Under the pieces are notes generated by a model that saw only the letters and a program-made list of their open reading frames with translations, searched no databases and was not told where the DNA came from. This document shows, piece after piece, positions 9,179 to 54,358 of a stretch of DNA of 64,000 bases. The stretch is taken from the NCBI GenBank assembly GCA_963785415.1, contig CAWAVB010000001.1:1187922-1251921 (forward strand), in the 5' to 3' direction. The translations under genes were made by a program, and so were the position numbers. The stretch comes from an uncultured Acidimicrobiaceae bacterium (GTDB taxonomy: Bacteria; Actinomycetota; Acidimicrobiia; Acidimicrobiales; Bog-793). Every line of letters begins with the position of its first letter. The first letter of the stretch is position 1.

Positions 9179-9279
9179 CGCCGCAGCTTAGAGGTGCCCC
9201 GAAAGCCCCGGTTCTTCCTCGCAACCGCCGCGGCGCCCCGAACCCGGCCGCATCGTCAGTCCTTGGCTAACGTCGCGTT

Positions 9280-10338
9280 GTGGCCGACGATGCCGGCGGT
9301 GTCGCCCGCGGCCGCCACGGACGAAAACGGTCCCAGGCCGGGGCTCGGACTCTGACGACGCGACGCGTTTGGTTCGTCTCCGCGGGTCTCGTCGCCGGAA
9401 TCCTCGCCGCCGCCACCGCGTCCGCCGGGGCCGGGACGTCGACGACCGGGAACCTCCAGTCGCAGGCGAGCGCGATCGCCACCGAGCTCGCCCAGGACAA
9501 CAACCAGCTCAACTCGCTCGGCGAGCAGTACCTCACGGCGAAGTCCGAATACGACGCCGCCAGCGCCGCCGCCAGGCACACCTCCGGGGTCGTCGTGCGG
9601 ATCGAGCACCTCCTCGGCCACGACCGCAACGACGTGGCCGCCGCGGCGATCGGCGCCTACGTCACCGCCGGGAGTACGACCGACCTCGGGACGTACCTCC
9701 TCGAGAAACCGGACGAGGTCGCCGTCGAGCAGACCTACCTCAACTTCGCCTCGAACAAGCTCAGCTCGGCGATCGCGAGCTACCAGGGCGACGAGACCCG
9801 CCTGCGCACGTCGCTCGCCGTCGAGACCCACGAGGCCGCCGTCGCCAAGGAGGCGCTCGCCCGCACGACCGCGGCGCGCACGAGCGTCGTCGGCACGCTC
9901 CAGAGCGAGCAGCGGCTCTACGACTCGGTGCAGGGCCAGCTCGCCCGGCTCGTCGCCGCCCAGCTCGCCGCCCAGCAAGCCGCCCAGCAAGCGGCCGCGG
10001 CGAAGTCCCAGGCCGCGCAGGGCACCAACGGGAACCAGACGGGGCCACCGTCGCTCGCCGGCACCCAGGGGATCGGCACGTCACCGATCCCGAACGGTTC
10101 GCTCAGCCAGGACTTCGCCGAGCTGCGCAACTGCGAGGCGAGCGGCGACTACCAGACGAACACGGGGAACGGCTACTACGGCGCCTATCAGTTCGCGCTC
10201 GGGACCTGGCTCGGCCTCGGCGAGACCGGCCTGCCGAGCGACGCGTCACCCGCCGTGCAGGACGCGGCCGCCTACCTGCTCTACCAGCGCGACGGCTGGC
10301 ACCCCTGGCCGGCCTGCTCCGCCATTCTCAACCTGTAG
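9280..10338 (+). CDS. Resuscitation-promoting-factor (Rpf)-like lytic transglycosylase with an N-terminal membrane anchor/signal and a coiled-coil
   Basis: The C-terminus NCEASGDYQTNTGNGYYGAYQFALGTWLGLG...GWHPWPACS matches the Rpf transglycosylase-like domain (catalytic Glu in CE(A)S). GTG start at 9280. Confidence 0.85.
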   Translation: MADDAGGVARGRHGRKRSQAGARTLTTRRVWFVSAGLVAGILAAATASAGAGTSTTGNLQSQASAIATELAQDNNQLNSLGEQYLTAKSEYDAASAAARHTSGVVVRIEHLLGHDRNDVAAAAIGAYVTAGSTTDLGTYLLEKPDEVAVEQTYLNFASNKLSSAIASYQGDETRLRTSLAVETHEAAVAKEALARTTAARTSVVGTLQSEQRLYDSVQGQLARLVAAQLAAQQAAQQAAAAKSQAAQGTNGNQTGPPSLAGTQGIGTSPIPNGSLSQDFAELRNCEASGDYQTNTGNGYYGAYQFALGTWLGLGETGLPSDASPAVQDAAAYLLYQRDGWHPWPACSAILNL

Positions 10339-10339
10339 G

Positions 10340-14122
<3,783 letters not shown>

Positions 14123-39550: not shown

Positions 39551-39560
39551 GGAGGACGCG

Positions 39561-40610
39561 ATGACCCCATTCTCCGACCTCAACACGACCTGGTTCGCCC
39601 TCATCGGGCTGTTATGGACCGGCTACTTCTTCCTCGAGGGGTTCGATTACGGCGTGGCCGTCGTCACGCCCTTCATCGCCCGGGACGAAACCGACCGGCG
39701 GATGTGCCTGAACGCCGTCGGACCCGTCTGGGACGGGAACGAGGTCTGGCTCATCGTCGCCGGCGGGGCGATGTTCGCGGCGTTCCCGCTCTGGTACGCG
39801 CGCCTGTTCAGCGGCTTCTACCTGGCGCTTTTCCTCGTGCTCATCGCCCTCATCTTCCGGGGCATCTCGTTCGAGTTCCGCCAGCACGACGACCGGCAGA
39901 GCTGGCGGCGGACCTGGGACACCGCGAACTTCGTCGGCAGCCTCATCCCCGCCTTCGTCTGGGGGGTCGCCTTCACCAACCTCGTCCACGGGCTGCCGCT
40001 GTCACCGGGGGGCCACTACTTTGGGGGGCTGCCCGGACTGCTCCACCCGATCGCCATCGTCGGCGGGCTCGCCAGCCTGGCCGTCTTCGTCTTCCACGGC
40101 TCGCTCTTCCTCAGCCTGAAAACGAGCGGTGACGTCGCCCGGCGCGCCCGGCGCGCCGCCGGTGTCGTCGGCGTCGCCGCCGTGGCCCTCCTCGGTGGTG
40201 CCGTCGCCTGGGTGGCCGAGGCTGGCCGACCGGCGGTCGCGGGCTCCGTGAGCCCGGTCCTGCCGCTCGTCCTCGGGATCGGCGCCGTCGCCGCCCTGGT
40301 CGCGGCGACCGCCCTCGTCGTCGCCCACCGGGACGGGTGGGCGTTCGCCGCCACCGGCACGGCGATCCTCGCGACGATGGGAGCGGTCTTTGGCCGGATG
40401 TTCCCCGCCGTCCTTCCGGCGAGCAACCGGGCCGCGAACGCCCTCACCATCGCGGCGAGCGCCTCGCAGCACAACACGCTCATCGTCATGACCATCGCGG
40501 CGGCCTGCTTCACGCCGTTCGTCCTCGCCTACCAGGCCTGGACGTACTGGGTGTTCCGCCAGAGGATCATCCGCCCGGTCGCCACGCCCGGCGCCGCCGC
40601 CGCGAGCTAG
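39561..40610 (+). CDS. cydB: Cytochrome bd oxidase subunit II
   Basis: WFALIGLLWTGYFFLEGFDYGVA is the typical CydB N-terminus. Confidence 0.95.
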   Translation: MTPFSDLNTTWFALIGLLWTGYFFLEGFDYGVAVVTPFIARDETDRRMCLNAVGPVWDGNEVWLIVAGGAMFAAFPLWYARLFSGFYLALFLVLIALIFRGISFEFRQHDDRQSWRRTWDTANFVGSLIPAFVWGVAFTNLVHGLPLSPGGHYFGGLPGLLHPIAIVGGLASLAVFVFHGSLFLSLKTSGDVARRARRAAGVVGVAAVALLGGAVAWVAEAGRPAVAGSVSPVLPLVLGIGAVAALVAATALVVAHRDGWAFAATGTAILATMGAVFGRMFPAVLPASNRAANALTIAASASQHNTLIVMTIAAACFTPFVLAYQAWTYWVFRQRIIRPVATPGAAAAS

Positions 40611-40612
40611 AC

Positions 40613-42418
40613 GTGCCCGGCCGCTTCGGCGCACGCCGCCGGGGGGCCGAGCGGACCCGATCGGGCGCCGACCGACACCTCGTCGGCGAGCTGCCGGTCG
40701 TGCGGCGCACCATCGCCGCCTCCGTCGCGGTCGGGCTCGTCTCCACGGCCACCGTCGTCGTCCAGGCGGTCGCGCTCGCCCACCTCCTCGCCGGCGCGCT
40801 GCCCGGGGCCAGCCCCGGGGACCGGCTCACCGACTTCGTCTGGCTGGGCGGCGCAGCCGTCGTCCGCGGCCTCGCCGCGCTCGTGGGCGAGACCCTCGCC
40901 CACCACGGTGCGACAACGGCCAAGGCCGACCTGCGATCGCGACTCGTCTCCGCGGCCCTCGCCCGAGCCCCCTTTGGAGACACAGGCGGTCCGGGAGACC
41001 TCGCGACGGTGGCCGGACGCGGGCTCGACGCCCTCGACGTCTACATCGGGCGGTGCCTGCCGGATCTCGTCCTCGCGGTCGTGGCTCCGCTCGCCCTCGC
41101 GGTCGCCGTCGGCGTGCTCGACTGGATTTCGGGTCTCATCGTCGTCGCGGCGATCTGCCTGTTCCCGGTGTTTGGCGCGCTCGTCGGACGGGCGAGCCTG
41201 GCGCTCGCCGGCAACCGCTGGAACCAGGTCGAGGACCTCGGCCGTCACATCACAGACGTCTTCGAGGGCCTTCCCGTCCTGCGGGCCTTCGGCCGCACCG
41301 CCGAGCAACGCGCCCGCATCGCGCGGGCCGGCGAGGCGCTGCGGACCGCCAGCCTGTCGACGCTGCGCGTCGCCTTCCTCTCGGCGCTCGTGCTCGACAC
41401 GCTGGCGTCGGTCTCAGTCGCCCTCCTCGCGGTCCCCCTCGGGCTGCGGCTGCTGAACGGGACGGTCGAGCTCCCCGCCGCGCTCGCCGTGCTGATCGTC
41501 GCGCCCGAGGTCTTCCTGCCTCTGCGCCGGGCGAGCGCCGAGTTCCACGAGAGCACCGAGGGGCTCGCCGCGGTCGCCCAGGCGCTGGTGCTCATTGGCC
41601 CGGGACGGCCGTCCGGGACATCCTCGGCTCCGGCCGTCGCGACACGGGTCGCGGCGGTCCCGGACCCGACGCGGGTGACGGTCGCGCTGCGCGCCGTGCG
41701 CTACGAGATCCCGGGCCGGCCCGAACCGGTCCTCGACGATGCCGACCTCGCCATCGCCCCGAGCGAGACCGTCGTCGTGGTCGGCCCGAACGGCGCGGGG
41801 AAGTCGACCGCGGCCACCCTGCTCCTCGGGTTCGCCTCCCCGAGCCGCGGGTCGGTCACCGTCGGCGACGTGGATCTGCGCGACATCGATCTGCGGGCGT
41901 GGCGCAGGCAGATCACCTACCTGCCCGAGCATCCGGCGCTCCTCGGCCGCACGCTCGCCGAGAACCTCCGGCTCGCCGATCCCGAGGCGAGCGACGACGA
42001 CCTCGTCGCCGCGCTCGGCGCGGCCGGCGCCCCCGAGCTCGTCCACGACCTGCCCGAAGGGCTCGACACGCGTCTCGGTGACGGCGGGCGACCGGTGTCG
42101 TCGGGGGAGCTGCAGCGCATCGCGCTCGCGCGCGCGTTCCTGCGCCGCGGATCCCTCTACGTCCTCGACGAGCCAACGGTGCATCTCGACGCGGCGAGCG
42201 AAGAGGCGGTCGTCGCCGGGCTCCGCCGGTTGCTCGCCGGACGCAGCGCGTTCGTCGTGACGCACCGCCCGGCGGTCGTCGACCTCGCCGACCGGGTCGT
42301 GACGTTGCGCGCCGGCCGGTTCGTCCCGGCCGGGGGCCCGTACGGGATGCCGTCGGGTGCTCCCGGCGCCGAACCGGCGGGGGTCGGCGAGACGACCGGG
42401 GCGATCGTGCCCTCATGA
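40613..42418 (+). CDS. cydD: Thiol reductant ABC exporter CydD (permease + ATPase)
   Basis: TM domain followed by GPNGAGKST, SSGELQRIALARA and VLDEPT. GTG at 40613 lies just after the cydB stop; the exact start is uncertain. Confidence 0.85.
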   Translation: MPGRFGARRRGAERTRSGADRHLVGELPVVRRTIAASVAVGLVSTATVVVQAVALAHLLAGALPGASPGDRLTDFVWLGGAAVVRGLAALVGETLAHHGATTAKADLRSRLVSAALARAPFGDTGGPGDLATVAGRGLDALDVYIGRCLPDLVLAVVAPLALAVAVGVLDWISGLIVVAAICLFPVFGALVGRASLALAGNRWNQVEDLGRHITDVFEGLPVLRAFGRTAEQRARIARAGEALRTASLSTLRVAFLSALVLDTLASVSVALLAVPLGLRLLNGTVELPAALAVLIVAPEVFLPLRRASAEFHESTEGLAAVAQALVLIGPGRPSGTSSAPAVATRVAAVPDPTRVTVALRAVRYEIPGRPEPVLDDADLAIAPSETVVVVGPNGAGKSTAATLLLGFASPSRGSVTVGDVDLRDIDLRAWRRQITYLPEHPALLGRTLAENLRLADPEASDDDLVAALGAAGAPELVHDLPEGLDTRLGDGGRPVSSGELQRIALARAFLRRGSLYVLDEPTVHLDAASEEAVVAGLRRLLAGRSAFVVTHRPAVVDLADRVVTLRAGRFVPAGGPYGMPSGAPGAEPAGVGETTGAIVPS

Positions 42419-44166
42419 CGACGGCGGCGATCCCGGCCGGGACCCGGACGCGGCGTCGCGGCGACGACGGCCCGCCCATAGGCGAACCGCGGATCGCGCC
42501 GCGCCGGTTCGGCCGGGCGGCCGTGTCGGGGTCGATCGGTGCCGCCTGCGGCATCGGGCTCCTCGCGACGTCGGGTTGGCTCATCACGCGGGCCGCCGGG
42601 CGCCCGCCCGTGTTCGTGCTCAGCGTCGCCATCGGCCTCGTGCAGGCGTTCGCCCTCGGTCGGGGACTCGCCCGCTACGCCGAACGCCTCGCCGTCCACG
42701 ACGTCTCGCTCGACGTGCTCGGGCGCCTGCGGCTCGGGCTCTACGACTCGCTCGAACCCCTCGTCCCCGGGGGCCTCGGCCCGAACGGATCAGGCGCCGT
42801 GCTCAGCGCGTTCGTCTCCGACGCCGAGATCCTCGCGACGGCCTTCGCGAAGAGGGTCACGGCGGCGGTCGACGTGACCGCGAGCGTCGTCCTCGGGGCC
42901 GGAGTCGCCGCGGCGGTCGAGCCCTCCGTCGGGGCCGTGCTTCTCGCGGGGGCCGTCGTCCTGGTCGGCGCCGCCTTCGCCCTTGCTCGCCTCGGCCGGG
43001 CCGGCGCGGAGCGCGAGGCCGCGGCGCGCGCCGAGCTCGCCGACTCGGTCATCGACACGATGCGCGTCGCCCGCGAGCTCGTCGCCTACGGCCGCGAGGA
43101 TCTCGTCGACTCCCGGCTCGAGGAGATCCGCCGGCGATCGAACGCCGGTGCGGCCCGGGGCGCCCTCGCCACCGGCATCGGCCGCGCCGTCGCCACGTTC
43201 GGCGCGGCCGCGGCGCTCATCGCCGTCATCGCCACGGGCATCGCCGCCCACGACGCCGGTCGCCTCTCGGGCGTGATGCTCGCCGTCGAGGCCTTCGTGG
43301 CCCTCGCCGTCTACGACCAGTGCGCGAGCCTCCCGCCGGTCCTTGCCGACGTCGGCGCGGCCCGCGCCGCGCGGCGTCGACTTCGCCACCTCGGGGCGCT
43401 CGCCGCTCCAGTGCGCGAACCCGGCGTGGACGAGAGCCCGCCCGCTGGTCGACTTGCGGTCGCGTTCGACGACGTCGCGGTCGTGCACGCCGACAAGGTC
43501 GCACTCGACGGGCTGTCGCTGCGGCTGGAGCCGGGACGCCGGATCGGTCTCGTCGGACCGAGCGGCTCGGGCAAGACGAGCGCGCTGTGGGCGCTTTTGC
43601 ACTTCGTGCCGTGCGCGCGCGGCGCCGTGTCGATCGGCGGCGTCGGCGTCGACCGGATGTCGCGCAAGGGCCTCGCCCGCCACGTCGGGTGGACGGCGGA
43701 GACGACCCACGTCTTCGCCGCGAGCCTCGCCGACAACCTGCGCGTCGCCGACCCGGGCGCCGACGACGCGGCGCTCATCGAGGCGATCCGGCGCGCCGGG
43801 CTGGCCGCCTGGCTCGCCTCCCTGCCGGACCGCCTCGCCACCGTGCTCGGCGCGGGCGGGCGCCAGATGAGCGCCGGCGAACGCCAGCGGCTGGGACTCG
43901 CCCGCGCCCTCCTCGCCGGGGGCGAGGTGCTGGCGCTCGACGAGCCGACCGCGCACATCGACCCGGCGTCATCGGCCGACGTGCTCGCCGAGCTCGTCGG
44001 CGCAGCCGGGGCGCGCTCGGTGCTCGTCGTCAGCCACGAACCCGACCTCGGCCGGCTCGTCGACGAGATCGTCACCCTCGACGCCGGCCGGGTCGCCACG
44101 CCCCCCGGCCTCGGCGGAACCGGTGCGCCGGAGCAACCGCCCGCCCCAAGCGCCCGGCCCGCCTGA
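42415..44166 (+). CDS. cydC: Thiol reductant ABC exporter CydC
   Basis: ATGA overlap with cydD. Motifs: GPSGSGKTS, SAGERQRLGLARA, ALDEPT. Confidence 0.85.
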   Translation: MTTAAIPAGTRTRRRGDDGPPIGEPRIAPRRFGRAAVSGSIGAACGIGLLATSGWLITRAAGRPPVFVLSVAIGLVQAFALGRGLARYAERLAVHDVSLDVLGRLRLGLYDSLEPLVPGGLGPNGSGAVLSAFVSDAEILATAFAKRVTAAVDVTASVVLGAGVAAAVEPSVGAVLLAGAVVLVGAAFALARLGRAGAEREAAARAELADSVIDTMRVARELVAYGREDLVDSRLEEIRRRSNAGAARGALATGIGRAVATFGAAAALIAVIATGIAAHDAGRLSGVMLAVEAFVALAVYDQCASLPPVLADVGAARAARRRLRHLGALAAPVREPGVDESPPAGRLAVAFDDVAVVHADKVALDGLSLRLEPGRRIGLVGPSGSGKTSALWALLHFVPCARGAVSIGGVGVDRMSRKGLARHVGWTAETTHVFAASLADNLRVADPGADDAALIEAIRRAGLAAWLASLPDRLATVLGAGGRQMSAGERQRLGLARALLAGGEVLALDEPTAHIDPASSADVLAELVGAAGARSVLVVSHEPDLGRLVDEIVTLDAGRVATPPGLGGTGAPEQPPAPSARPA

Positions 44167-44361: not shown

Positions 44362-45048
44362 CTAGGCCCGGTGGTCGCGGTCCCCGCCCCAGGCGCCCAT
44401 CGACACGAGCCGGTCGCGGAACCCCGTCTCGTCCATGATCGTGCGCATCTCGGCCGCGGCGCGTTCCGACGGGAACATCGAGCCGAGGCCGAGCTCGTCG
44501 CGCAGCTCGTCGCGGCGGGCGATGAAGGCCCGCCACTTCGGGCCGAGCGCCTCGACCCGGTCGGCGAAGAAGACCTGCGGCGTGCCGCCGATCCCCTTGT
44601 CGTAGAACTGCTCGGCCCAGGCGGTGAACATCTCGACGTGCTTGATCCCGTAGCCCTCCTCGACCTGGAGCCCGCGGATGATCTGGTTGATGACGGCGAC
44701 GGAGTTGCCGCGCGGGCATCGGCTCTGGCACGTGTAGCAGTAGAAGCAGAGCCACACCGTGTCGTCGGAGAGCAGCGTCGGGTCGCCGTCGAGGGCGCGG
44801 CGGACGATCTCACGCGGTGAGTAGTCGCCGAAGCGGGCGGCGGGGCACCCCGAGGTGCAGATCCCGCACTGGATGCACGAGAGGAACCCCTCGACGTGGG
44901 CGTGCATGCGCGGGTCCGTGGCGATCCGCGCGGTGAGCTCGAGGTGCGCCGGCGGCGGCTCGGAAAAGGTGTTCTCGGCGATGACCGAGTACGGATTCGT
45001 GTGCGCGCCGTCGTCGGCGAGCGTCGTCGGCTCTTTCGTCTTAGGCAT
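44362..45048 (-). CDS. HdrC-like 2x[4Fe-4S] subunit with a C-terminal extension of about 110 aa
   Basis: ATG at 45048 (MPKTKE). Motifs CIQCGICTSGCP and CFYCYTCQSRCP. Overlaps the upstream gene by 8 nt. Confidence 0.8.
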   Translation of the reverse strand: MPKTKEPTTLADDGAHTNPYSVIAENTFSEPPPAHLELTARIATDPRMHAHVEGFLSCIQCGICTSGCPAARFGDYSPREIVRRALDGDPTLLSDDTVWLCFYCYTCQSRCPRGNSVAVINQIIRGLQVEEGYGIKHVEMFTAWAEQFYDKGIGGTPQVFFADRVEALGPKWRAFIARRDELRDELGLGSMFPSERAAAEMRTIMDETGFRDRLVSMGAWGGDRDHRA

Positions 45049-46186
45049 CGGATCCTCCGCGATCGGGCTTGTCGGGGGCGGCCCGGAAGAACTCGGGCCA
45101 GAAGTAGGCGGCCACGCCGGCGCGGCGGCGCCGGGCCGCGGACCGGACGTTGTCACGGCACAGAAGGCACGGCGTGACGATCGGGGCTTGCTCGGCAGCG
45201 GCGAAATCTAAGAGCGCCCCCACCTCCTCGCTCGGCCCCCGGTAGACGCCACCGAGGCCGCCGCAGCAGCCGGCGTGCAACGCGGGGTAGGAGATCACGG
45301 ACTCGGCACCGGCGAGCTCGGCCGCGTCGGCGAGGAGCGCCAGCGCGCCGTCCCGATCGGCGAGGCACCCGACGTAGGGCACGAAGCGCGCCGCGGCGGC
45401 CTCGAGCTTGCGCCCGTCGCGGCGGGCCGTCTCGACGAGGACCCGCCACACCGGCGTGACCTCTACCCCGGCGTCGCCGAGCGAACGGTCGCACGCCGGG
45501 CAGGCCGTCACGACCGCCCCGAGGCCGACGAGGTCCGCCGGCGGACAGGCGCCCGCCGGGTGGCCGCAGCACACGGCCCCGGTGGGCCGGACGAGCCCGA
45601 CGCCGAGCTCGGCGGCGAGACCCAGCGTGCCGGCGAGGAGGGACGGGTCGGCGTCGAGGGCGCAACCGGCGAAGAACGACACGTCCCCGTCCGCCGGCGC
45701 GGCGGAGCGGGGCGCGCGCCGGAACCGGCGGGCGACGCGGTGGACGCCCTGGGAGGCCGCGTCGACGAGATCGTCGGGAACGAAGCCCCGGACCGCCATC
45801 GCCGCGCCGAAGGCGACGGCGTCGACCGTCGGCTTTCTCGACAGGCGCCGCGTGGCGACGGCGGCGGCGCCGCGCTCGGGACAGCGCGGCCCCCCGAAGG
45901 CCTCCTGGAGCCGGCGCACGTCGGCCATCACGGCGGCGACGTCGACTCCCATCGGACAGGCCTCGTTGCAGGCGCCGCAGCCGGTGCAGCGCCACACGTC
46001 CTCGGCTGCGAGCAGCTCGTCGACGTCCCCCGCCAGCAGCTGCCGGATCACCCGGCGCGGGCCCTCGGCCATCGCGAGGCCCTGCGGGCAGGCGCTCCGG
46101 CACCGCCCGCACTGGTAACACGGCCGGCAACGCTCGGCGATCGCGGTGACGACTGAGCGTGCCTCCTCGGTGGCGACGGCCGTCAT
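45041..46186 (-). CDS. Soluble HdrD/GlcF-like fusion: HdrC-type ferredoxin domain + two CCG (HdrB-type) domains
   Basis: CYQCGRCRSACP and CTGCGACNEACP, then FFAGC...AVCCGHPAG...TACPAC and YVGC...AGCCGGLGG...TPCLLC. ATGA overlap with the upstream gene. Confidence 0.8.
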   Translation of the reverse strand: MTAVATEEARSVVTAIAERCRPCYQCGRCRSACPQGLAMAEGPRRVIRQLLAGDVDELLAAEDVWRCTGCGACNEACPMGVDVAAVMADVRRLQEAFGGPRCPERGAAAVATRRLSRKPTVDAVAFGAAMAVRGFVPDDLVDAASQGVHRVARRFRRAPRSAAPADGDVSFFAGCALDADPSLLAGTLGLAAELGVGLVRPTGAVCCGHPAGACPPADLVGLGAVVTACPACDRSLGDAGVEVTPVWRVLVETARRDGRKLEAAAARFVPYVGCLADRDGALALLADAAELAGAESVISYPALHAGCCGGLGGVYRGPSEEVGALLDFAAAEQAPIVTPCLLCRDNVRSAARRRRAGVAAYFWPEFFRAAPDKPDRGGSDA

Positions 46187-48580
46187 GACGATCCCCCGCC
46201 GATCCCCGCCAGGGCGGGGTCGGCTCCGGTAGCCCGCTCATCGGCGAGCCTCTCGGCGTGGGCGCAGAAGGTGCGGAGCCGGCGCCCGACGGTGTGGCGC
46301 TCCGCGGCGCACAGGTGCCACTGCTCGATCGGCATCGGGTTGCCCGCCTCGGCGAGGAGCTCTACCGCCACGGCGATCTGCTCGGCGGCGCTCCGGTCGC
46401 CGCCCCGGTACTGGCAGCGGTCCTCGGCGCAGCCGGCGAGGAAGACCCCCGCCGCACCGAGCCGCGCCGCCTCGACGAGGTGCAGCGCGCTCACCCGCCC
46501 GAGGCAGGGCAGCTCGACGAGGCGCACGTTTTCCGGGTAGCGGTCGCGGCGCACCCCCGCCAACGAGAAGGCGGCGCCGGCACACTCGGCGCAGACGAAT
46601 CCGACGACGGGGTGGTCCGCGCCCTCGACGAGCGTGCGCACCCGGCCGAGCAGCGTCTCGTCGTCGAGGCCGTGGGCGATCGCCAGCTCCGGGCAGTGCG
46701 CGGCGCAGATCCCGCAGGCCCGGCAGCGGTCGGCGTCGACGACGGCGATCATCGCGTCGTCGCGCAGCCCTGCCGGGCGCGGCGCGTCGGCGGAGCGCGG
46801 CGACAAGACCCATCGCCCCGAACGGGCAGGCGCCCGTGCAGACGTCGCATCCGACACAGCGCGACCCGTCGATCGTCGGGGCCGCCGCGGGACGCCGGGA
46901 CGTCGAGGTGAGGTAGCGGTGGACCTGACCCGCCGCCGCGGACGCCTGGGACGAGGACTCGGCGAGCGACTTCGGCCCGGAGGCGGATCCGCAGACGAAC
47001 ACACCCTCGGCCGACGTCTCGGTCGCCCGGTTCTTCGCGTCGAGGACGTCGACGAAGCCCGCGGCGTCGAGTCGCGCGCCGAGCACCCCGGCGACGCGCT
47101 CGGTGTCGGCGGACGGCACGAACCCAGTCGACAAAACGACGAGATCGGGCCGGAGCACCCGCTTCACGCCGGCACCCACGTCCTCGACCTCCACGACGGG
47201 CCGTTTGTCGCCGTCGAGCTCGACCCGGGGCGGGGAGCCCCGCAGGAACTCGACGCCGGCCGCGCGCGCCGCCGTGTACCAGCTCTCCCCCTCGGTGCCG
47301 AGGGTGCGCAGCTCGAGGTAGCAGACTGTGACCCGCGTCGTCGGGAACAGCCTTCGCAACCGGATGGCGTGCTTCAGGGCGATCGTGCAGCAAAGCCGCG
47401 AGCAGTACGGCAGGCGCCGCAGGTCACGTGACCCGGCGCACTGGACCATGACGACGTCCCCGACCGGGGGCCGGTCGAGCCAGAGCCGCTCCTCCCAGCC
47501 GTCAAGCACGGGCGCGAACTCGGTCTGGGTGAGCACCCGTTCGGCGGGGTAACCGAGGTGGGCGACGAGCTCCGCGGGGGCGGGGTCGCAACCGGTGGCG
47601 GCGACGATCGCGCCGGCCCGGATCGTGGCGAGCCGCGGCGACTGGGTGAAGTCGATCGCCTCGACCGGGCACGCCTCGGCGCAGGCGCCGCAGAACGTGC
47701 AGCTGTCGAGGTCGACCGCCCAGCGGACCCGGCCGTCGAACAGCTCTGAGTAGATCGCCTTGTGCTCGCCGTCCGGCCCGGTGACCCCGCACGCCTTCTC
47801 GCACAGACCGCAGTCGACGCAGTCCTGCGTCACCATGTTCGGGAGCTGGCGGAGGGTGACCTCGAACCCGCCCGGTTCGCCGGACACCGACTCCACCTCG
47901 GTGCGCCGCCAGATCGCGAGGTTCGGGTGGTCGACGGCCGCGTTCCGGAAAAGGCAGCGGCGGACCCCGGACTGCTCCTCGACCGTCGGCAGGCACGCCC
48001 CGCAGTCGTTCGTCGGGTAGGCCGTGCCGATCCGGGTGGCGTAGCCGCCGAGGAACGCCTGGCGCTCGACGAGGTCGACGTGATGGCCCATCCGGGCGAG
48101 CTCGGTCGCCGTGGCGATGCCGGCGACGCCCCCGCCCAAGACGACCACCGAATCGACCCGTGCCGCGGGGGCGGCCGGCCGGGGACGGGCCGCGGGGAAC
48201 CGCAGGGCCGCCCGGGCGATGCGCAGGGCCTTGTCGGTGACCGCCGTGCGATCCTCGCCGTGGACCCAGGAACAGCCTTCCCGGACGTCGGCCACCTCGA
48301 GAGAAAGGCCCAGAGCCGCGAGGTTTCCGAAGCGCTGCGCGACGGAGTCCGCCGAGCAGCCGACGAACACCAGGCGCTCGCCCGTCCCGTTTTCGGCGAG
48401 CTCGGCGAGCCGGGCCCGACCCTCGCGTCCGCACCACACCCGGCGCCGTTCGACCGGTCCCCCGTCGTCGGCGAGCCCGCGCTCTACGACGCCGAAGTCG
48501 ACGTTCGCCGCCATCGTCCCGGCGCACTCGCAGACAAGGGTGCGCGCGCCCCCGGGGGCACCCGCGTCGGATCCCGTCAC
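46183..48580 (-). CDS. HdrA-like flavoprotein continuing, after a +1 frame break near 46770-46815, into a second [4Fe-4S] motif and an MvhD domain (QmoB-like architecture)
   Basis: GTG at 48580 forms a GTGA overlap with the ferredoxin stop. Frame A carries LVCECAGTMAANVD, VVVLGGGVAGIATATELA and ...CVGCDVCTGACPFGAMGLV. Frame B continues with AVVDADRCRACGICAAHCPELAI and VVGFVCAECAG...LPCLGRVS...GCAEDRCQYRGGD. The interval is 2398 nt (3n+1), and frame A has no stop until 46238. Confidence 0.7.
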
Positions 48581-49029
48581 GCCAGCACCGCAGTGGCAAA
48601 GCTTCTCGTTGCCGCGAGGCACCCGAGATCGGCCCCGTCGACCGGCCGCGCCGTCACCGCACCGGTCGGACAGGCGCGCGTGCACGCCCCACAGCCGAGA
48701 CAGCGGTCGCGGTCGAACTCGATCGTCCGAAAGGTCCGCACCCGGTCGGGGACCTCGAACGAACCGTCCGGCTCGTGGCGGGCGATCCGTCGCAGGCAGG
48801 CACCGAGGGCTCCGCGCGTCGTCCCGGCGGGCGCGTCGTAGAGCTGGAGCGGATCGAAAAGTGCACTCTCGGCAATGGCGGCGGACGGGCAGACCTTGAC
48901 GCATCGACCGCAGCCGATGCAGAGCTCCTCGTGGCGGACGATCTCGCAACCGATCCCGTCGGTCGCCGTCTTGGGCGCCACTCCGGGGAGCGAACCCAGC
49001 ATCTCCCGTCCGCGGGCGGTGAGCGGCAT
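48577..49029 (-). CDS. 2x[4Fe-4S] ferredoxin-domain protein
   Basis: CIGCGRCVKVCP and CLGCGACTRACP motifs separated by about 70 aa. Confidence 0.75.
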   Translation of the reverse strand: MPLTARGREMLGSLPGVAPKTATDGIGCEIVRHEELCIGCGRCVKVCPSAAIAESALFDPLQLYDAPAGTTRGALGACLRRIARHEPDGSFEVPDRVRTFRTIEFDRDRCLGCGACTRACPTGAVTARPVDGADLGCLAATRSFATAVLA

Positions 49030-49032
49030 CGC

Positions 49033-49512
49033 CTACCGCCTCGACAGCCGGGGCAGGCCCGAGATCGTCGCGTGCATCCGGCGTGTCGCGGCGACGAAGC
49101 GCGGCGAGTCGTTGGCGCTCATCGTGAACATCTGGACGCGCTCGGGCTCGACCCCCACGGATTCCAGCAAACGTTGGACGAAGGCGACCCGGTCGAGCGC
49201 CGACAGGTTCCCTTCCCGGTAGTGGCACTGGCCCTCGAGGCAGCCGGCCACGAAGACGCCGTCGGCCCCCTCGGCGAGGGCACTCAGCACGTGGAGGGGA
49301 CTGACGCGGCCGGTGCACGGCATGAGCACGCTGCGAACGGTGGTCGGCAACGGGACGCGTGCATTCCCGGTCGCGTCGGCGGCGGCGTAGGCACATTCCC
49401 GGCAGAAGAACCCGATGATCGTGCGTCCACTGTCGTCGGCGTCTGATCCGTCCGGGCCCTTCGGGACGGGCGCGACCGTCCCGGGAACGAGCGCAGCCGG
49501 GACGCTAGGCAC
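49033..49512 (-). CDS. MvhD/FlpD-like (methyl-viologen-reducing hydrogenase delta subunit family) protein
   Basis: IIGFFCRECAYAAAD...MPCTGRVSPLHVLSALAEGADGVFVAGCLEGQCHYREGN matches the MvhD Cys pattern. Overlaps the hdrA2 stop by 8 nt. Confidence 0.8.
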   Translation of the reverse strand: MPSVPAALVPGTVAPVPKGPDGSDADDSGRTIIGFFCRECAYAAADATGNARVPLPTTVRSVLMPCTGRVSPLHVLSALAEGADGVFVAGCLEGQCHYREGNLSALDRVAFVQRLLESVGVEPERVQMFTMSANDSPRFVAATRRMHATISGLPRLSRR

Positions 49513-52500
49513 GGGCGGTCACCTCGGCGAGAATCTCGGCATCCGAGAAGCCGCCGAGGGTCATCGCCCCGGACGGGCACTCGGCGACGCAGATGCCGCA
49601 GCCCCGGCAGCTCTCCGACTCGACGACGGCGTGGGCGGGCACGCCGTCGACGAGGTGCACGGCGCCCTGGGGACAGACGTTCTCGCAGACGCCGCAACCG
49701 ATGCAAACCTCGGGATCGGACCAGGCGACCTCGGCGGGGGTCATGAGGAAGCCGCTCGAGAGCATCGACATCACGCGGGCCGCGGCCGCCTTGGCCTGGG
49801 CGATCGTGTCCGGGATGTTCTTCGGGCCCTGGGCGGTCCCGGCGACGAAGACGCCGGCGCGCTGGGTGTCCACCGGGCGCAGCTTGGGGTGGTACTCCTT
49901 CAGGAAGCCCGCGGCGTCCTGCTGCAGGCCGGCCACCCGGGCGATCTGCGCCGTCCCGTCCGAGCCCTCGAGCCCGGCGGAGAGCACGACGAGGTCGAAC
50001 AGCTCCTCGGTCTTGCGCCCGGTCACAGTGTCCTCGAAGCGGACCCGGAGCCGTTGGTCGGGCTCCTCGATCAGCTCGCCGACCCGGGTGCGGACGTAGC
50101 GAACCCCGCGGGTCGCCACCAGCCGGTAGTACTCCTCGTGCGCCTTGCCGGGCGCCCGCAGGTCCGTGTAGCCGATCGTCACCTCGCACTCGGGATGGTC
50201 CTGTCTGATGAGCGAGGCATGCACCGTGGCGAAGAGGCAGCAGATCGCCGAGCAGTGCGTGTTGCCCCGTGAGGTCTGGTCGCGCGAGCCGACGCACTGC
50301 AGCATGAAGATCCGCTTCGGCGTCTCGCCATCGGAGGGCCGCCGCAGCTCGCCGCCGGTCGGCCCCGAGGCGGAGACGAGGCGGGCGAGCTGGCTCTGGG
50401 TGATCACGTTGGCGTACCGGCCGAACCCGAGCGGAGGCTTGCGCCGGGCGTCGAACTCGCGGTGGCCCGTGGCGATCACCATCGCGCCGACCGTCAGCTC
50501 CTCCTCCCACGGCTCCTGGTCGAAATCGATGGCGTGCGCCGGACAGACCGTCTCGCAGGAACGGCAGTCGCAGCAGCCGCCGCAGGCGACGCAGCGCCGC
50601 GCCTCGGCGACGGCGTCGTCTTCGCTGAGCCCGAGGCGCACCTCGCCCCAGGTCCCCCTGCGCTCCTCGGGGGCGGCCATCGGCATGGGCCGGCGCCGCT
50701 GTGGCCTGCCCGACGGCAGGTCGGCGTCCGCCACCTCGGCTGTCGGGCGGCCGGGTTGCCAGACCTCCGCCCACTCCTCGCCGCGCAGGAAGTTGTGGAT
50801 CGCGCGAGCGGCGCGCCGTCCGTCGGCGATCGCCTCGACCGGGGTCGAGAGCCCCGGCACCGCGGCACGGCCCGCTGCGAACACGCCGGGCCGCTCCGTG
50901 AGAAGCGTCGCCCGGTCCGTGACGACCTGTCTGCCGGCCACCCGGACGCCCGTCGCGCCCACGAGGAACCCCTCGTCGATCTCCGAACCGTCCGCCAAGA
51001 CGACAGAGTCCACGGCGATCTCGCGCGGCTCTTCGCCCGCCCGGGCAAGGAACCGGAGGGCGCCGGCGGCACCGTCTTCCGAGATCTCGACCGGCACGAG
51101 CCCGCAGGCGAGCTCGACCCCTTCGTCGACCGCCTCGGTGACGAGCTCCGGCTGAGCGGCAAGGGCCGGGCGGTCCTCGGCGCAGGCGACCGTGACGGTT
51201 TGCGCGCCAAGCCGCAGGCAGCTGCGGGCGGCGTCGAAGGCGGCGTCGCCGCTCCCGACCACGACCACCCGCCGTCCGATCGCGACCGGCTCGCCCGTGG
51301 CGCGGGCGCCCAGCAGCTCGGCGGCCGAGACGACACCAGGCCGGTCCGATCCGGGAAGCGTCGAGGTCGCGGCACGCTGGCGACCGACGGCGAGCAGCAC
51401 CGCCTGGTAACCGGAGGAAACAAGGGAGTCCACGGTGAAGTCCGCCCCACAACGCTCGCCGGCCCGGAACTCGACGCCGTGGGCGAGCACGCGCCCGACC
51501 TCCTGGTCGAGGAGCTCGCGCGGCAGACGGAACTCCGGGACGAGGCGACGCAGCTCCCCGCCCGCTTCGGGCTGCGCCTCGAAGACAGTGACGTGGTAGC
51601 CGAACCGGGCGAGCTCCCGCGCCGCGGTGAGCCCCGCGGGGCCGGCGCCCACGACGGCGACCTTCTCCTCGTACACCGCCGGGGGGGCGACGACTGGGGG
51701 CGCCGCCGTGACGCGGTCAGCGACGAAGCGCCCGACAGCGGCGATCGCGACGGGCTCGTCGACCCGGCCCCTCGTGCACGCGGTCTCGCACTCGTGGCCA
51801 CAGACCCGGCCGCACACGCTCGGGAACGGGTTCTCCCGACTCGCCAGCTCGTAGGCGTCGGCGGTGCGCCCCTGGGCGACGAGGGCGGCAACCCCCTGGG
51901 CGGCGGTGTGCACCGGGCAGACCGCCACACAGGGCGCCCAGCCGCGGTAGTCGATCGCGAACCCCGCGGGGACCGCGTTGGCGAACGGCCGTCCGATTGC
52001 CTTGCGCTTCGCCATGCCGAAGTCGAAGGCGCTCTCCAGCTCGACCGGACACGCCGAGGTGCACCGCCCACAGGCCACACAGCGCTCGGAGACGTAGCTC
52101 GGACGGTGGAGCACCCGCACCCGCAGCTCGCCCGGCGGGCCGACCACGGACGTCACCTCGGAGAGGGTGTGGACGTGGATGCGTGAGTCCGTCGCGGCGT
52201 TGGCGAGACGTGGCGCGAGCGAGCACATCGCGCAGTCCTCGGTCGGGAAGGTCTTCGACAAGCGTGCCATGTAACCGCCGAGCGACTGCTCGCGTTCGAC
52301 GATGTGTACCTCGATGCCCGCGTCGGCGAGCTCCTCGGCAGCGGACATCCCGCCGATCCCCCCACCGACGACGACCGCGGAACGGTGCAGGAACGTCCGG
52401 GTCCGCGTCAGGTCGGACTGCTGGGTCGCGCGGGCGACCGCCGCGGCGAGGATCGTCTCGGCCTTTTGCTGCGCCTTCGCCGGTTCGTCGCGGTGGACGA

Positions 52501-52807
52501 ACGAACAGCCTTCGCGCAGATTGGCGAAGGCCACGGCGTTCTCACCCAGGCGCAGCTCGCGCGCGATGCGCTCGAACGTCGGGCCCTGGACGCGCCGCGA
52601 GCAAGCGCCGATCACGATGTGGTCGAGTCCCCGCGACTGCACGGCCCGCTCGATGCGCCGCCGTCCCTCGGTGCCACACATGAACTGGCTGACCGACACG
52701 TTCACGACACCGGGCAGGGCGCGACCACCGGCGGCGAGGGACCTGAGGTCCAGGACGTCGGAGATGTTGCCCCCGCACTCGCAGAGGAAGACGCCGCAGC
52801 GCGTCAG
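49505..52807 (-). CDS. Giant HdrA-like flavoprotein with an inserted GltD/NfnB-like NAD(P)H-binding FAD/FeS module (HdrL-like)
   Basis: The HdrA N-terminal domain (GVFLCECGGNISDVLDL...IVIGACSRR...FANLREGCSFVH) is followed by VVVGGGIGGMSAAEELA. The insert carries NPFPSVCGRVCGHECETAC, VAVVGAGPAGLTAARELA and VVVVGSGDAAFDAA. HdrA then resumes (FMLQCVGSRD...CSAICC) and ends with two C-terminal CxxCxxCxxxCP motifs. Start assigned to the CTG at 52807 (see findings). Confidence 0.8.
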   Translation of the reverse strand: MTRCGVFLCECGGNISDVLDLRSLAAGGRALPGVVNVSVSQFMCGTEGRRRIERAVQSRGLDHIVIGACSRRVQGPTFERIARELRLGENAVAFANLREGCSFVHRDEPAKAQQKAETILAAAVARATQQSDLTRTRTFLHRSAVVVGGGIGGMSAAEELADAGIEVHIVEREQSLGGYMARLSKTFPTEDCAMCSLAPRLANAATDSRIHVHTLSEVTSVVGPPGELRVRVLHRPSYVSERCVACGRCTSACPVELESAFDFGMAKRKAIGRPFANAVPAGFAIDYRGWAPCVAVCPVHTAAQGVAALVAQGRTADAYELASRENPFPSVCGRVCGHECETACTRGRVDEPVAIAAVGRFVADRVTAAPPVVAPPAVYEEKVAVVGAGPAGLTAARELARFGYHVTVFEAQPEAGGELRRLVPEFRLPRELLDQEVGRVLAHGVEFRAGERCGADFTVDSLVSSGYQAVLLAVGRQRAATSTLPGSDRPGVVSAAELLGARATGEPVAIGRRVVVVGSGDAAFDAARSCLRLGAQTVTVACAEDRPALAAQPELVTEAVDEGVELACGLVPVEISEDGAAGALRFLARAGEEPREIAVDSVVLADGSEIDEGFLVGATGVRVAGRQVVTDRATLLTERPGVFAAGRAAVPGLSTPVEAIADGRRAARAIHNFLRGEEWAEVWQPGRPTAEVADADLPSGRPQRRRPMPMAAPEERRGTWGEVRLGLSEDDAVAEARRCVACGGCCDCRSCETVCPAHAIDFDQEPWEEELTVGAMVIATGHREFDARRKPPLGFGRYANVITQSQLARLVSASGPTGGELRRPSDGETPKRIFMLQCVGSRDQTSRGNTHCSAICCLFATVHASLIRQDHPECEVTIGYTDLRAPGKAHEEYYRLVATRGVRYVRTRVGELIEEPDQRLRVRFEDTVTGRKTEELFDLVVLSAGLEGSDGTAQIARVAGLQQDAAGFLKEYHPKLRPVDTQRAGVFVAGTAQGPKNIPDTIAQAKAAAARVMSMLSSGFLMTPAEVAWSDPEVCIGCGVCENVCPQGAVHLVDGVPAHAVVESESCRGCGICVAECPSGAMTLGGFSDAEILAEVTARA

Positions 52808-53751
52808 TCGCTCCTTCCCTCTTGGGCCGGCACGCTCGAGCGTTTCCGGGCGCCGATGCGTTCGAGCAGCGGCTCGAGGTTCTGGGAGTGGGCCTCGACG
52901 CCGCAGACCGTGTCCGGGTCGGCTCCGAGGGCGAGCGCCACGAGCTGCTGCACGTGGAGGTGGACGAAGGGATACTCCTCGCCGGAGGACGCCGAGATGG
53001 CGTCGTGGTAGCGGTCGAACTGGACCGAGCAGTTCGGGCACATGTGGACGAGCACGTCGATCTTCTCGGCCGCCAGTCGCCGCAGCTTCTCCCGGGTGAC
53101 GGCGAGCGAGCGCGAGGGGTTGACGAAGATCTGACGGAATCCGGCGCCGCAGTGCGTCGTCTTTTCGGGGTAGTTCCCGGTCTTCTCGACGCCCATCGGT
53201 TCGAGCAGGTCCTCGGGAAGCATGAAGTTCTCGCTGTCCCCGAGCACCTCGTCAGGGAAGACCTTGCAGTAGTGGCACGCCGGGTGGGTCGCGACCTTGA
53301 GGCCCGACAGCCGCCGACGGATGAGGTCGGGGATCTGTCGGTGCCGGCTCCAGAGGATCTCGAGGGTGTGGCGGTGCTGGATCGTGCCGGCGATGCGGTC
53401 GTCGTAGCGGCGGCCGATCTTCGCGAGCGTCTCGTTCGCCTGCCGCCGGTACTCGGGGACGTTCAGCACGTCGCGGCACTTCTTGTTGATCGCGTAGCAC
53501 GTCGAGCACAGGTACGACTGGACCGGGTGGTCTGCCTCCACCGCCACGCAGGCGTTGCGCGCCGCGACGGCGAGGGTCGTCTGGAACGGCATGAGGTCGG
53601 AGTAGTAGCCGAGCCCGGTGCAGCAGGTCTGGTCCGTGTTGACCGTGTACTCCACGTCGAGCCGCTCGAAGAGCCACTTCGTCGCCGCCTCGACCCCCGG
53701 GTACTCGGAGGACACGAGGCAGCTCCGGAAGAGCTGTACCCCGCCTTTGAT
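52804..53751 (-). CDS. HdrB-like subunit with two CCG domains
   Basis: LFRSC-X31-CCTGLG...CSTC, and ACHYC...THCGAGFR...MCPNC. The first canonical start (GTG 53715) lies after the first conserved Cys, so the 5' end is placed at the in-frame ATC 53751. This is uncertain. Confidence 0.75.
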   Translation of the reverse strand: MKGGVQLFRSCLVSSEYPGVEAATKWLFERLDVEYTVNTDQTCCTGLGYYSDLMPFQTTLAVAARNACVAVEADHPVQSYLCSTCYAINKKCRDVLNVPEYRRQANETLAKIGRRYDDRIAGTIQHRHTLEILWSRHRQIPDLIRRRLSGLKVATHPACHYCKVFPDEVLGDSENFMLPEDLLEPMGVEKTGNYPEKTTHCGAGFRQIFVNPSRSLAVTREKLRRLAAEKIDVLVHMCPNCSVQFDRYHDAISASSGEEYPFVHLHVQQLVALALGADPDTVCGVEAHSQNLEPLLERIGARKRSSVPAQEGRSD

Positions 53752-53787
53752 GGGGTCGATGTCTGGCGTCGTCTGGGGGATGTCTCT

Positions 53788-54186: not shown

Positions 54187-54200
54187 TTTCTCGTGAGAAA
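54187..54200. promoter_or_regulatory. Short palindrome TTTCTC-gt-GAGAAA in the hdr / GH94 divergent intergenic region
   Basis: Read directly. Short, in an AT-richer patch about 160 nt upstream of the GH94 start; a candidate operator only. Confidence 0.2.
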
Positions 54201-54358
54201 GATCACACCCCGCCGATACCCGCGATCCGTGCTCTCGGCAGAGGCGATGAAACCCGGTGCGGTAAAGGGGCCACGATATCGTTCGGTCCGGTACGACATA
54301 CCCGTCGCAGGACGCGGAAACCGGTTTCGGGGCGATCCCAGCGGACAAAGGAGACGCC

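Follow-up and report, generated by a model that had tools for sequence, protein, structure and literature searches.

A soil actinobacterial HdrL (type III HdrA): a permuted GltD-type cassette inserted in HdrA, with partly eroded cofactor sites

Few scaffolds for flavin-based electron bifurcation are known, and HdrA is one of them. A 64,000-nucleotide stretch of contig CAWAVB010000001.1 from an uncultured Acidimicrobiaceae bacterium (hereafter the window; ~72% G+C) contains a gene, hdrL, in which a first-pass annotation recognized an HdrA flavoprotein with a GltD/NfnB-like NAD(P)H module inserted in it. This locus raises the questions of whether the fusion is genuine, where the inserted module begins and ends, whether the HdrA flavin of such a protein could bifurcate electrons, and whether the architecture is new. 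All motifs quoted in the first-pass annotation were found in a single open reading frame (ORF) on the minus strand (Table 1; coordinates are given 5' to 3' on the forward strand).

A GltD-type cassette within HdrA

When the protein was searched against all PDB chains with phmmer, the top match was HdrA (8rvv_A, E = 1.1e-162; 5odc_A, E = 9.7e-156), aligned in two blocks (query 3-286 with HdrA 2-286 and query 745-1098 with HdrA 290-640), between which about three HdrA residues are replaced by 458 amino acids (aa). The NCBIfam model NF040770 matches HdrL with 694 bits, and Pfam matches of the HdrA FAD and ferredoxin types flank the inserted block on both sides. Apart from this block, HdrL reads as a complete HdrA, with an N-terminal cluster domain (in which C9, C11, C44, and C69 are invariant), a thioredoxin-reductase-type FAD domain, and a C-terminal domain for two [4Fe-4S] clusters; LQCVGSRD and CSAICC are found at aa 836-843 and 852-857, respectively. 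Its N-terminal domain and its Cys197 motif, which are needed for the obligate HdrA dimer, are both kept.

The inserted cassette sits between the two CxxCxxCxxxCP motifs of what is known as HdrA's inserted ferredoxin domain, opening at WAPCVAVCP and closing with AVAEARRCVAC. Pfam identified Fer4_20 (PF14691, aa 291-367, E = 2.3e-18) and Pyr_redox_2 (PF07992, aa 382-662, E = 1.2e-35) within it, and the excised block matched NfnA of NfnABC (9bov_A, 1.5e-85; 9n5u_A, 2.6e-72), StnC (8oh5_C, 8e-68), NfnB (4ylf_B, 6e-62), NfnI-L (5jca_L, 1.6e-55), and GltD (2vdc_G, 1.3e-36). Structure prediction and domain alignment, which the first-pass annotation had proposed as a check, recovered both folds with Foldseek and phmmer. 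An AlphaFold2 model of HdrL based on 51 homologues (mean predicted local distance difference test score, pLDDT, 79.5; predicted TM score 0.75) matched HdrA with E ~1e-51, with a TM score of 0.91 for the resolved part of HdrA (8rwn_A, 428 residues), and superposed on the NfnABC, StnC, and NfnB modules with root mean square deviations of 3.1-5.1 Å (3.1-3.8 Å for NfnABC; TM score 0.77 for NfnB). The cassette is the most confident part of this model, with pLDDT mostly >80 and many blocks >90 (listed values 85-96). Thus, the two-block HdrA alignment and the GltD-family matches bear out that an NAD(P)H module of the GltD/NfnB-like kind follows the first CxxCxxCxxxCP motif as an insert. The proposed end of the block at 50770 was too early, since the insert runs to 50576 and comprises 458 rather than about 390 aa, the last ~65 of which (linker, helix, and RCVAC) are part of the GltD module. 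The possibility that the middle block is simply the normal inserted domain of HdrA is ruled out by the two-block alignment and by the genuine GltD-type dinucleotide and Fe-S sites.

The elements of the cassette do not follow the order seen in NfnB. NfnB residues 3-42, which form its N-terminal helix-CxxC element, align to HdrL aa 703-742 behind the flavin domains, while 9bov_A (residues 102-586), 8oh5_C (residues 95-577), and 9n5u_A stay collinear with the query through the helix-CxxC element. By these alignments, the cassette is circularly permuted with respect to the NfnB/GltD order, a permutation that it shares with StnC and NfnABC, whose cassettes are likewise flanked by other domains on both sides. 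The module is GltD/NfnB-like, but it is closer to the permuted, non-bifurcating StnC/NfnABC cassette than to NfnB proper. We infer that both cassette ends give Cys residues to one (distal) cluster close to HdrA's own inserted-domain clusters, which would explain why the cassette drops into a loop and why that cluster adjoins the clusters of the host. All eight cassette Cys, both Rossmann glycine motifs, and Arg427 (the equivalent of StnC R239 and NfnB R201) are conserved; NPFPSVCGRVCGHECETAC occupies aa 326-344 (51776-51832, minus strand).

It might be argued that such a protein is an artefact, either a mis-assembled join of hdrA and a gltD-like gene or a decaying pseudogene, considering that hdrL has no canonical start codon, that the hdrA2-mvhD gene of the same operon is frameshifted in the window, and that high GC content keeps spurious ORFs open. 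However, the 3303-nucleotide ORF recurs without indels at 99.7-100% nucleotide identity in five other assemblies, which differ in sample and assembler. In a sixth assembly identity is 99.1%, with two gaps, and in a further relative it is 97%. Full-length homologues number more than 120, the ratio of nonsynonymous to synonymous substitution rates (dN/dS) of the HdrA parts is 0.07, and both junctions lie inside one ferredoxin domain whose halves align to HdrA. The stop-to-stop frame that contains the ORF (49505-53251, minus strand) has a G+C content of 0.86 at third codon positions (GC3). Chimeric assembly and pseudogene formation are ruled out by the homologue set, dN/dS, and the independent assemblies, and we consider an artefact exceedingly improbable. 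The two outcomes that the first-pass annotation had named beforehand as fatal to its own proposal, a block lacking GltD sites and a chimeric ORF, are thus both contradicted.

By inspection of start codons, no ATG, GTG, or TTG was found near the true N-terminus of HdrL. The start (52802-52807) is CTG or ACG in this genome and GTG or ATG in relatives, and it overlaps the stop codon of hdrB, stop and start sharing CTGA. Because the start codon is non-canonical, gene callers cut off 34 codons and shorten HdrL to 1066 aa in this lineage. Genome annotation currently labels such genes as 'FAD-dependent oxidoreductase' or 'HdrA'.

A word-indexed search returned 4629 proteins at E <=1e-30. The best 120 of these are 1038-1156 aa long and 58-98% identical over 93-100% of the query, and the named best homologues come from metagenome-assembled genomes (MAGs) of Gaiellaceae, Thermoleophilia, 'Actinobacteria', and Candidatus Dormibacteria. 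This soil family comprises >120 clusters at 90% identity. In a scan of 1.84 billion cluster representatives, the whole family was collapsed into one cluster at 50% identity, and many other clusters matched as a single stretch across both junctions. The HdrL-like clusters fall into two groups, one of ~1110-1150 aa with the same architecture and the other of ~1500 aa, without the N-terminal domain and with a second HdrA-like half added. Distant members that could be named are from Pseudomonadales MAGs, Dehalogenimonas sp. WBC-2 (AKG54036), Thorarchaeota, and Heimdall/Asgard archaea. An alignment with six other lineages revealed identical junctions in Pseudomonadales, Dehalogenimonas, Thorarchaeota, Asgard archaea, and the 1500-aa long form. 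Most or all of the query is matched by each of the best 80 GTDB loci; in about 65 of these the match extends from residue 1-3 as far as residue 1087-1100, and the others end at contig ends or earlier. Phyla among the GTDB matches listed include Actinomycetota, Chloroflexota, Desulfobacterota, Acidobacteriota, Bacillota, Planctomycetota, Armatimonadota, Bathyarchaeia, Hadarchaeota, and others. Homologues with the same insertion point, which the first-pass annotation had suggested looking for, are thus spread across many bacterial and archaeal phyla.

One related locus (L094; ena:ERZ25039466:contig_71545, 7069-13136) encodes a 642-aa HdrA without the insert (P0121). This protein shares 62-73% identity with the HdrA parts of the window HdrL and fills the same operon slot (hdrB, hdrA, mvhD/ferredoxin fusion, hdrA2). 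In a neighbour-joining tree, P0121 and the soil HdrL clade were sister groups (76% bootstrap support); the outgroups of this tree were picked for carrying the insert, so that polarity is not given. Because an insert-free protein holds the same slot and is sister to the HdrL clade, the insert has been gained or lost at short evolutionary range.

Bifurcation hallmarks and the state of the nucleotide module

Two residues at the FAD N5, Lys409 and Glu356, have been proposed to separate bifurcating from non-bifurcating HdrA (PMC12054007; PMC6405883). By anchored alignment (CC+5 and NVIT+5), the equivalent positions in the window protein are occupied by Val862 and Ala808. All 121 soil-family members lack both residues, having L/V/A and A/S/G there and never K/R or E/D, and the insert-free P0121 lacks them as well; in other phyla, HdrL-type proteins retain the Lys and, in many cases, the Glu. 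The HdrA2-MvhD protein encoded in the same operon keeps the Lys (CCTIALKHA) in the window copy and in all three orthologues checked (L001, L002, and L089). It had been suggested that an NAD(P)H module and a putative bifurcating HdrA flavin are combined in one polypeptide; both modules are indeed present, but the bifurcation hallmarks are not. Since HdrL lacks both residues and HdrA2-MvhD keeps the Lys, the bifurcating or confurcating flavin, if any, more likely sits on HdrA2.

A precedent for a GltD module serving as a non-bifurcating NADPH port is StnC, whose FAD is experimentally non-bifurcating and whose Lys170 is the non-Cys ligand of the proximal cluster, a position taken by Glu in bifurcating NfnB; the K170A and K170C variants of StnC have severely reduced activity. 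At least 90% of the soil family have Lys at the corresponding position (359). The loss of Lys409 and Glu356, together with this consensus Lys, favours the cassette being a simple nucleotide port. In our preferred reading, to which we assign a probability of roughly 0.6, HdrL would be the NADH-entry port of a cytoplasmic Hdr-like complex and would act as one paralogue of a putative HdrL/HdrA2 heterodimer in which bifurcation more likely takes place on HdrA2.

The nucleotide preference may be read from the end of the second Rossmann β2 strand. A YRR(T/S) 2'-phosphate clamp was read directly in four NADPH-binding modules (4ylf_B, 8oh5_C, 9bov_A, and 9n5u_A), where HdrL has an acidic ACAED. Considering general Rossmann-fold knowledge, this replacement predicts a preference for NADH over NADPH. 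The soil family splits roughly in half at the 2'-phosphate position, into 'VYRRT' and 'ACIED'/'ACAED' types, which suggests that a single orthologous group contains both NADH-specific and NADPH-specific subfamilies.

In this lineage, several cofactor residues of the cassette have changed. Asp647 of the FAD 'GD' motif is replaced by Arg, Gly359 occupies the position of StnC Lys170 and of the NfnB Glu ligand (Gly being found in the window protein and in the P0002 clade), and the NAD(P)H glycine motif carries G519S. At columns that are at least 95% conserved among 119 homologues, the window protein deviates at 10 of 120 positions in the insert and at none of 302 in the HdrA parts. When it was compared with two relatives, dN/dS was 0.28-0.42 for the insert versus 0.07 for the HdrA parts, the latter being, by this measure, under strong purifying selection. 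D647R, K359G, and the higher dN/dS of the insert imply that constraint on the cassette is relaxed but not absent and that erosion is confined to the cassette; the activity of the nucleotide/FAD site may be reduced in this lineage.

These changes bring in the main rival explanation for this particular sequence, in which the cassette is vestigial: it would bind no FAD and oxidize no NAD(P)H here, its sole remaining role being that of an Fe-S wire or of a plug on the ferredoxin-exit domain, and HdrL would be a plain non-bifurcating HdrA-like subunit. In addition to the skewed deviations and the raised dN/dS, this explanation draws on the replacement of an Asp present in all 119 other homologues, on the loss of the Lys at a position where substitutions severely reduce StnC activity, and on the insert-free sister HdrA in the same slot, by which the complex can exist without the module. 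However, the dN/dS of the insert is still well below 1, the eight Cys, both Rossmann glycine motifs, and Arg427 are intact, and the insert is the best-predicted part of the model. Furthermore, R647 and G359 are fixed in six same-population assemblies and in the 97%-identical relative, so the module has outlasted these changes. We regard a vestigial cassette as rather unlikely.

The hdr operon and the proposed electron path

hdrL is the second gene of a minus-strand operon, hdrB-hdrL-mvhD-fdx-hdrA2/mvhD-hdrD-hdrC, in which adjacent genes overlap or abut (Table 1). The same seven genes in the same order were found in an 84%-identical relative, a Dormibacteria MAG, and four GTDB loci, and the hdrD-like gene and hdrC complete a strand-contiguous operon in the window and six related loci (L001, L002, and L004-L007). 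Among the GTDB loci listed for distant phyla, the most constant neighbour of hdrL is mvhD directly downstream, with hdrC-hdrB upstream in a subset. This neighbour survey of the best 80 GTDB loci was used only for the presence of mvhD, hdrB, and hdrC, as it merges HdrL and HdrA2 matches and hides small fdx genes.

Could HdrL and MvhD alone form a self-contained oxidoreductase, that is, an Nfn/Stn-like NAD(P)H:ferredoxin oxidoreductase or transhydrogenase independent of HdrB and HdrC? In many distant phyla only mvhD is consistently adjacent, with no hdrB or hdrC detected in the flanks examined; each hdrL gene of Desulfobacterium autotrophicum is paired with mvhD; and the structures most closely related to the insert are those of transhydrogenase subunits. 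In the soil family, however, hdrB overlaps hdrL (CTGA), and the hdrD-like gene and hdrC belong to the same strand-contiguous operon in the window and the six related loci. Moreover, no NfnA-like ([2Fe-2S] plus FAD, PyrK-like) or HydBC-like partner gene was found in the operon or among the 34 window ORFs scanned with Pfam, a non-exhaustive set that was GC3-filtered or chosen manually. Such an independent enzyme seems improbable here.

If HdrL is instead the NADH-entry port, the cassette would act as a hard-wired pyridine-nucleotide connection, with electrons passing between NAD(P)H, the cassette FAD, its two [4Fe-4S] clusters, the clusters of the HdrA inserted domain, and the HdrA FAD in either direction. 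The inserted ferredoxin domain of the methanogen protein is where low-potential electrons leave the bifurcating FAD for ferredoxin (PMC13518236; PMC9012536), so a cassette spliced into that domain would tie the ferredoxin arm to NAD(H). The complex encoded by the seven genes might link NAD(H), ferredoxin, and a thiol/disulfide couple: HdrB, HdrC, and HdrD would reduce a putative disulfide, the reduction taking place at the subunits with CCG domains, and ferredoxin (the 150-aa protein or a soluble one) would be served via the intact inserted domain of HdrA2 and/or the MvhD and C-terminal arms. The overall chemistry could resemble that proposed for NADH-dependent Flx-Hdr systems, namely NADH + Fd(ox) + RSSR -> NAD+ + Fd(red) + 2 RSH (Fd, ferredoxin; RSSR, disulfide), or the reverse.

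The HdrB subunit is unusual in its second CCG motif, which reads HCG (THCGAGF, ~53150-53170), while its N-terminal motif is normal (CCTG). HCG is also present in all six family loci checked (L001, L002, L004, L006, L007, and L094), which suggests a modified non-cubane cluster or another substrate site in HdrB. We placed the hdrB start at ATC (53779-53781) because only then is the Cys equivalent to HdrB Cys9 included; relatives have ATG and L001 has ATA, and gene callers cut HdrB to 283-303 aa in some assemblies. In hdrA2-mvhD, an extra C at ~46800 (GTCG[C]CGCGC) causes a frameshift in the C-terminal ferredoxin domain, between its two Cys motifs, and leaves the MvhD part out of frame. Six other same-population assemblies do not have this C and encode an intact 776-798-aa HdrA2-MvhD, so it is probably an assembly or sequencing error and possibly a strain-specific mutation.

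Several points weigh against HdrL being an NADH port in a heterodimeric complex. We infer its substrate, direction, nucleotide specificity, and stoichiometry from sequence, and the atypical HCG of HdrB bears on the substrate side. The HdrL/HdrA2 heterodimer itself is putative. The Lys409/Glu356 criterion is a published proposal rather than a proven rule, and His863 or Gln806 might substitute. With Arg at the 'GD' Asp and Gly at the proximal-cluster Lys, the NAD(P)H port may be weak or dead in this lineage, and under the simple rule of PMC12054007 the GxGxxA form of the second Rossmann motif points to NADP and not NAD.

The operon converges on cydA, cydB, and two cydDC-type ABC transporter genes (cytochrome bd oxidase; 38168-44163, plus strand). 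The syntenic relative L001 shows the same convergence of cytochrome bd genes (cydABDC) on the hdr operon end. In the Dormibacteria MAG (L002; GCA_052139795.1, 1-18594), the operon lies directly downstream of genes for pyruvate:ferredoxin oxidoreductase (PFOR), a small ferredoxin, HoxEFUYH (an NAD-linked [NiFe] hydrogenase), and hypA, with acetate kinase on the other side, forming a fermentative, hydrogen-cycling neighbourhood. An extended and rather doubtful proposal is that soil Actinomycetota and Dormibacterota might possess an asymmetric Hdr complex, in which an NADH-wired, non-bifurcating HdrL is paired with a Lys409-bearing, bifurcating HdrA2-MvhD, and NADH-driven reduction of ferredoxin would be paid for by disulfide reduction at the HCG-type HdrB during hypoxia. 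Two features of the context agree with this proposal: cytochrome bd genes adjoin the operon here, and Hox hydrogenase and PFOR genes adjoin it in the Dormibacteria MAG. If this were true, oxygen-respiring soil bacteria would gain an NADH-driven route to reduced ferredoxin under hypoxia.

On its other side, the hdr operon diverges from a GH94/GH1/ABC sugar-utilization cluster. The rest of the window carries actinobacterial housekeeping genes, such as mfd, prsA, a glmU-like gene, and a gene for an Rpf-like transglycosylase. Control by the NADH-sensing regulator Rex was considered on account of a palindrome in the hdrB/GH94 intergenic region (TCGTGAGAAAGATCACAC, 54191-54208), the only window match to TTGTGA-N6-TCACAA, with two mismatches. 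This candidate was rejected, as at least one match occurs in 26% of shuffles and none of the six related loci (L001, L002, and L004-L007) has the site upstream of the operon.

Table 1. Features of hdrL, its product, and the hdr operon in the window (forward-strand coordinates)
Feature	Coordinates	Strand	Remarks
hdrL / type III hdrA, HdrA-GltD fusion gene	49505..52807	minus	1100 aa counted from CTG 52807
Candidate hdrL start	CTG 52807 (or ACG 52804)	minus	5 nucleotides after Shine-Dalgarno GGAAGGAG; near-cognate, probable
HdrA N-terminal domain, aa 1-130; CECGGN (aa 9-14) and further Cys for HA3-type [4Fe-4S] cluster	52418..52807	minus	aligns with 8rvv_A 2-130
HdrA FAD dinucleotide motif GGGIGG, aa 148-153	52349..52366	minus	
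DCAMC motif, Cys197 equivalent, aa 191-195	52223-52237	minus	
First Cys motif of HdrA inserted ferredoxin domain, CVACGRCTSACP, aa 243-254	52046..52081	minus	
Inserted GltD/NfnB/StnC-like cassette, aa 287-744, 458 aa	50576..51949	minus	gap in HdrA alignment; matches of excised block; model
Fer4_20 region, aa 291-367	51707..51937	minus	PCVAVCP and VCGRVCGHECETAC give six of eight Cys for two [4Fe-4S] clusters
Cassette FAD Rossmann motif VAVVGAGPAGL, aa 383-393	51629..51661	minus	
Flavin-contacting Arg427 in VPEFRLP	51521-51541	minus	
Cassette NAD(P)H site	51173..51268	minus	VVVVGSGDAAFDA (aa 514-526, 51230-51268) and β2 end VTVACAED (aa 538-545, 51173-51196)
Cassette FAD 'GD' motif degenerated to GVFAAGR	50867..50887	minus	Asp647 -> Arg; Asp in 119/119 other homologues
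Helix and RCVAC closing cassette, aa 732-742	50582..50614	minus	N-terminal (residues 3-42) in NfnB
Second Cys motif of HdrA inserted ferredoxin domain, CCDCRSCETVCP, aa 745-756	50540..50575	minus	directly abuts cassette CxxC
HdrA Glu356 equivalent, Ala808	50384-50386	minus	hallmark absent
HdrA Lys409 equivalent, Val862	50222-50224	minus	hallmark absent
HdrA C-terminal ferredoxin domain, two CxxCxxCxxxCP motifs, aa 1035-1078	49574..49705	minus	
hdrB-like gene, two CCG domains	52804..53781	minus	start ATC 53781
mvhD ([2Fe-2S] FlpD family)	49033..49512	minus	PF02662, E = 1.6e-41; overlaps hdrL stop
Gene for 150-aa 2x[4Fe-4S] ferredoxin (fdx)	48577..49029	minus	
hdrA2-mvhD fusion, insert-free HdrA with Lys409 equivalent	46183..48580	minus	broken here by extra C at ~46800
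hdrD-like gene, HdrC-type 2x[4Fe-4S] domain and CCG domain	45041..46186	minus	
hdrC	44362..45048	minus	NF041890, E = 4e-60

Comparison with known HdrL, HdrA, and GltD-type systems

The architecture of the window protein has already been described under the names 'HdrL' and 'type III HdrA' and is widespread; by its sequence, the window gene is a further, soil actinobacterial member. The HdrL-like designation of the first-pass annotation agrees with the published HdrA-glutamate synthase fusion architecture. Such proteins, noted there for some sulfate reducers and syntrophs, are not confined to these groups, being present in ANME-1 (anaerobic methanotrophic archaea) and Bathyarchaeota and abundant in MAGs of soil Actinomycetota and Dormibacterota. 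Our literature search found no publication on HdrL or Hdr in Gaiellales, Thermoleophilia, or Dormibacterota.

In D. autotrophicum HRM2, HdrL was described as a 'heterodisulfide reductase/glutamate synthase fusion' with an NADH site, each copy being followed by mvhD (PMC2702500). In Syntrophobacter fumaroxidans, an HdrABC/HdrL cluster with an FeS protein and MvhD (Sfum_0819-0824) is abundant under sulfate reduction (PMC5947623), and its gene set (hdrABC, FeS protein, mvhD, and hdrL) is the same as here. Both were compared by published description only, and some D. autotrophicum HdrL proteins carry selenocysteine. These two organisms are strict anaerobes in which DsrC is the presumed disulfide, whereas no dsr genes were found around hdrL in the window.

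The type III HdrA proteins (HdrA9/A10) of ANME-1 and Bathyarchaeota, with HdrA9-11 in ANME-1, have the same exact insertion point (PMC12054007, 2025; PMC9012536, 2022), and nine archaeal sequences were reported (PMC12054007). They resemble the window protein in length, and Bathyarchaeia loci in GTDB match query residues 1-1100. Adjacency of mvhD, a trait of type III HdrL, is also found here, the FlpD-family gene lying directly after hdrL. For the archaeal proteins, NAD(P)H has been proposed as the mid-potential donor or acceptor, with ferredoxin access blocked (PMC12054007; PMC9012536). All of the archaeal type III sequences reportedly keep K409 and E356 (PMC12054007), unlike the soil family, and identity between the two is only ~35-40%. 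In contrast to the archaeal systems, the window system belongs to a soil actinobacterium that carries cytochrome bd, the operon adds a second HdrA-MvhD and an HdrD-like gene, and the soil family alone comprises >120 clusters at 90% identity. The ~1500-aa representatives (such as P0122) differ from the window HdrL in having no N-terminal domain and a second HdrA-like half.

With regard to the cassette, the best sequence and structure matches are StnC (8oh5_C) and NfnA of NfnABC (9bov_A and 9n5u_A), which have the same permuted order of PCxxxCP, FAD and NAD folds, and helix-CxxC. The soil-family consensus shares the Lys at the StnC K170 position, from which the window lineage differs by Gly359. 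However, the host protein in StnC/NfnABC is NuoG/FdhF-like and the bifurcating partner module HydBC-like, whereas the host here is HdrA; StnC/NfnABC also carry the YRR NADPH clamp in place of ACAED. NfnB/NfnI-L (4ylf_B and 5jca_L) and GltD (2vdc_G) share with the HdrL cassette its fold, two [4Fe-4S] clusters, sites for FAD and NAD(P)H, and the Arg that contacts the flavin, but they are not permuted, have a Glu ligand at the proximal cluster and an NADPH clamp, and need NfnA (or GltB), which the window system lacks.

In the HdrABC-MvhAGD complex (5odc), the canonical bifurcating HdrA shares all four HdrA domains, the Cys197 motif, and the HdrB/HdrC/MvhD partners with the window system, at an identity of ~45% over the aligned blocks (estimated by eye). 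The window HdrL differs from it in the 458-aa insert and the absence of Lys409 and Glu356, and the operon has no hydrogenase or formate dehydrogenase genes. The sulfur-oxidizing sHdr system was rejected as a counterpart, since HdrA is full length here, 6tjr_A matches only aa 774-1015, and no lbpA, dsrE, or tusA genes were found among the cluster and flanking ORFs scanned.

In this comparison, the loss of Lys409/Glu356, the HCG-type HdrB, and the eroding NAD(P)H site are useful traits, none of which constitutes a new category. The family may be viewed as a natural experiment, containing both insert-bearing and insert-free members, members that have the NADPH clamp and others that lack it, one lineage with a broken FAD motif, and Lys409-less and Lys409-bearing HdrA proteins paired with each other. 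Such contrasts could be used to test which residues make the HdrA flavin bifurcating and how NADH couples to it. Compared with the previously described systems, the HdrA-GltD fusion is not restricted to sulfate reducers and ANME archaea but is common among abundant bacteria of soil and peat, most of them uncultured, that possess oxygen-respiring machinery.

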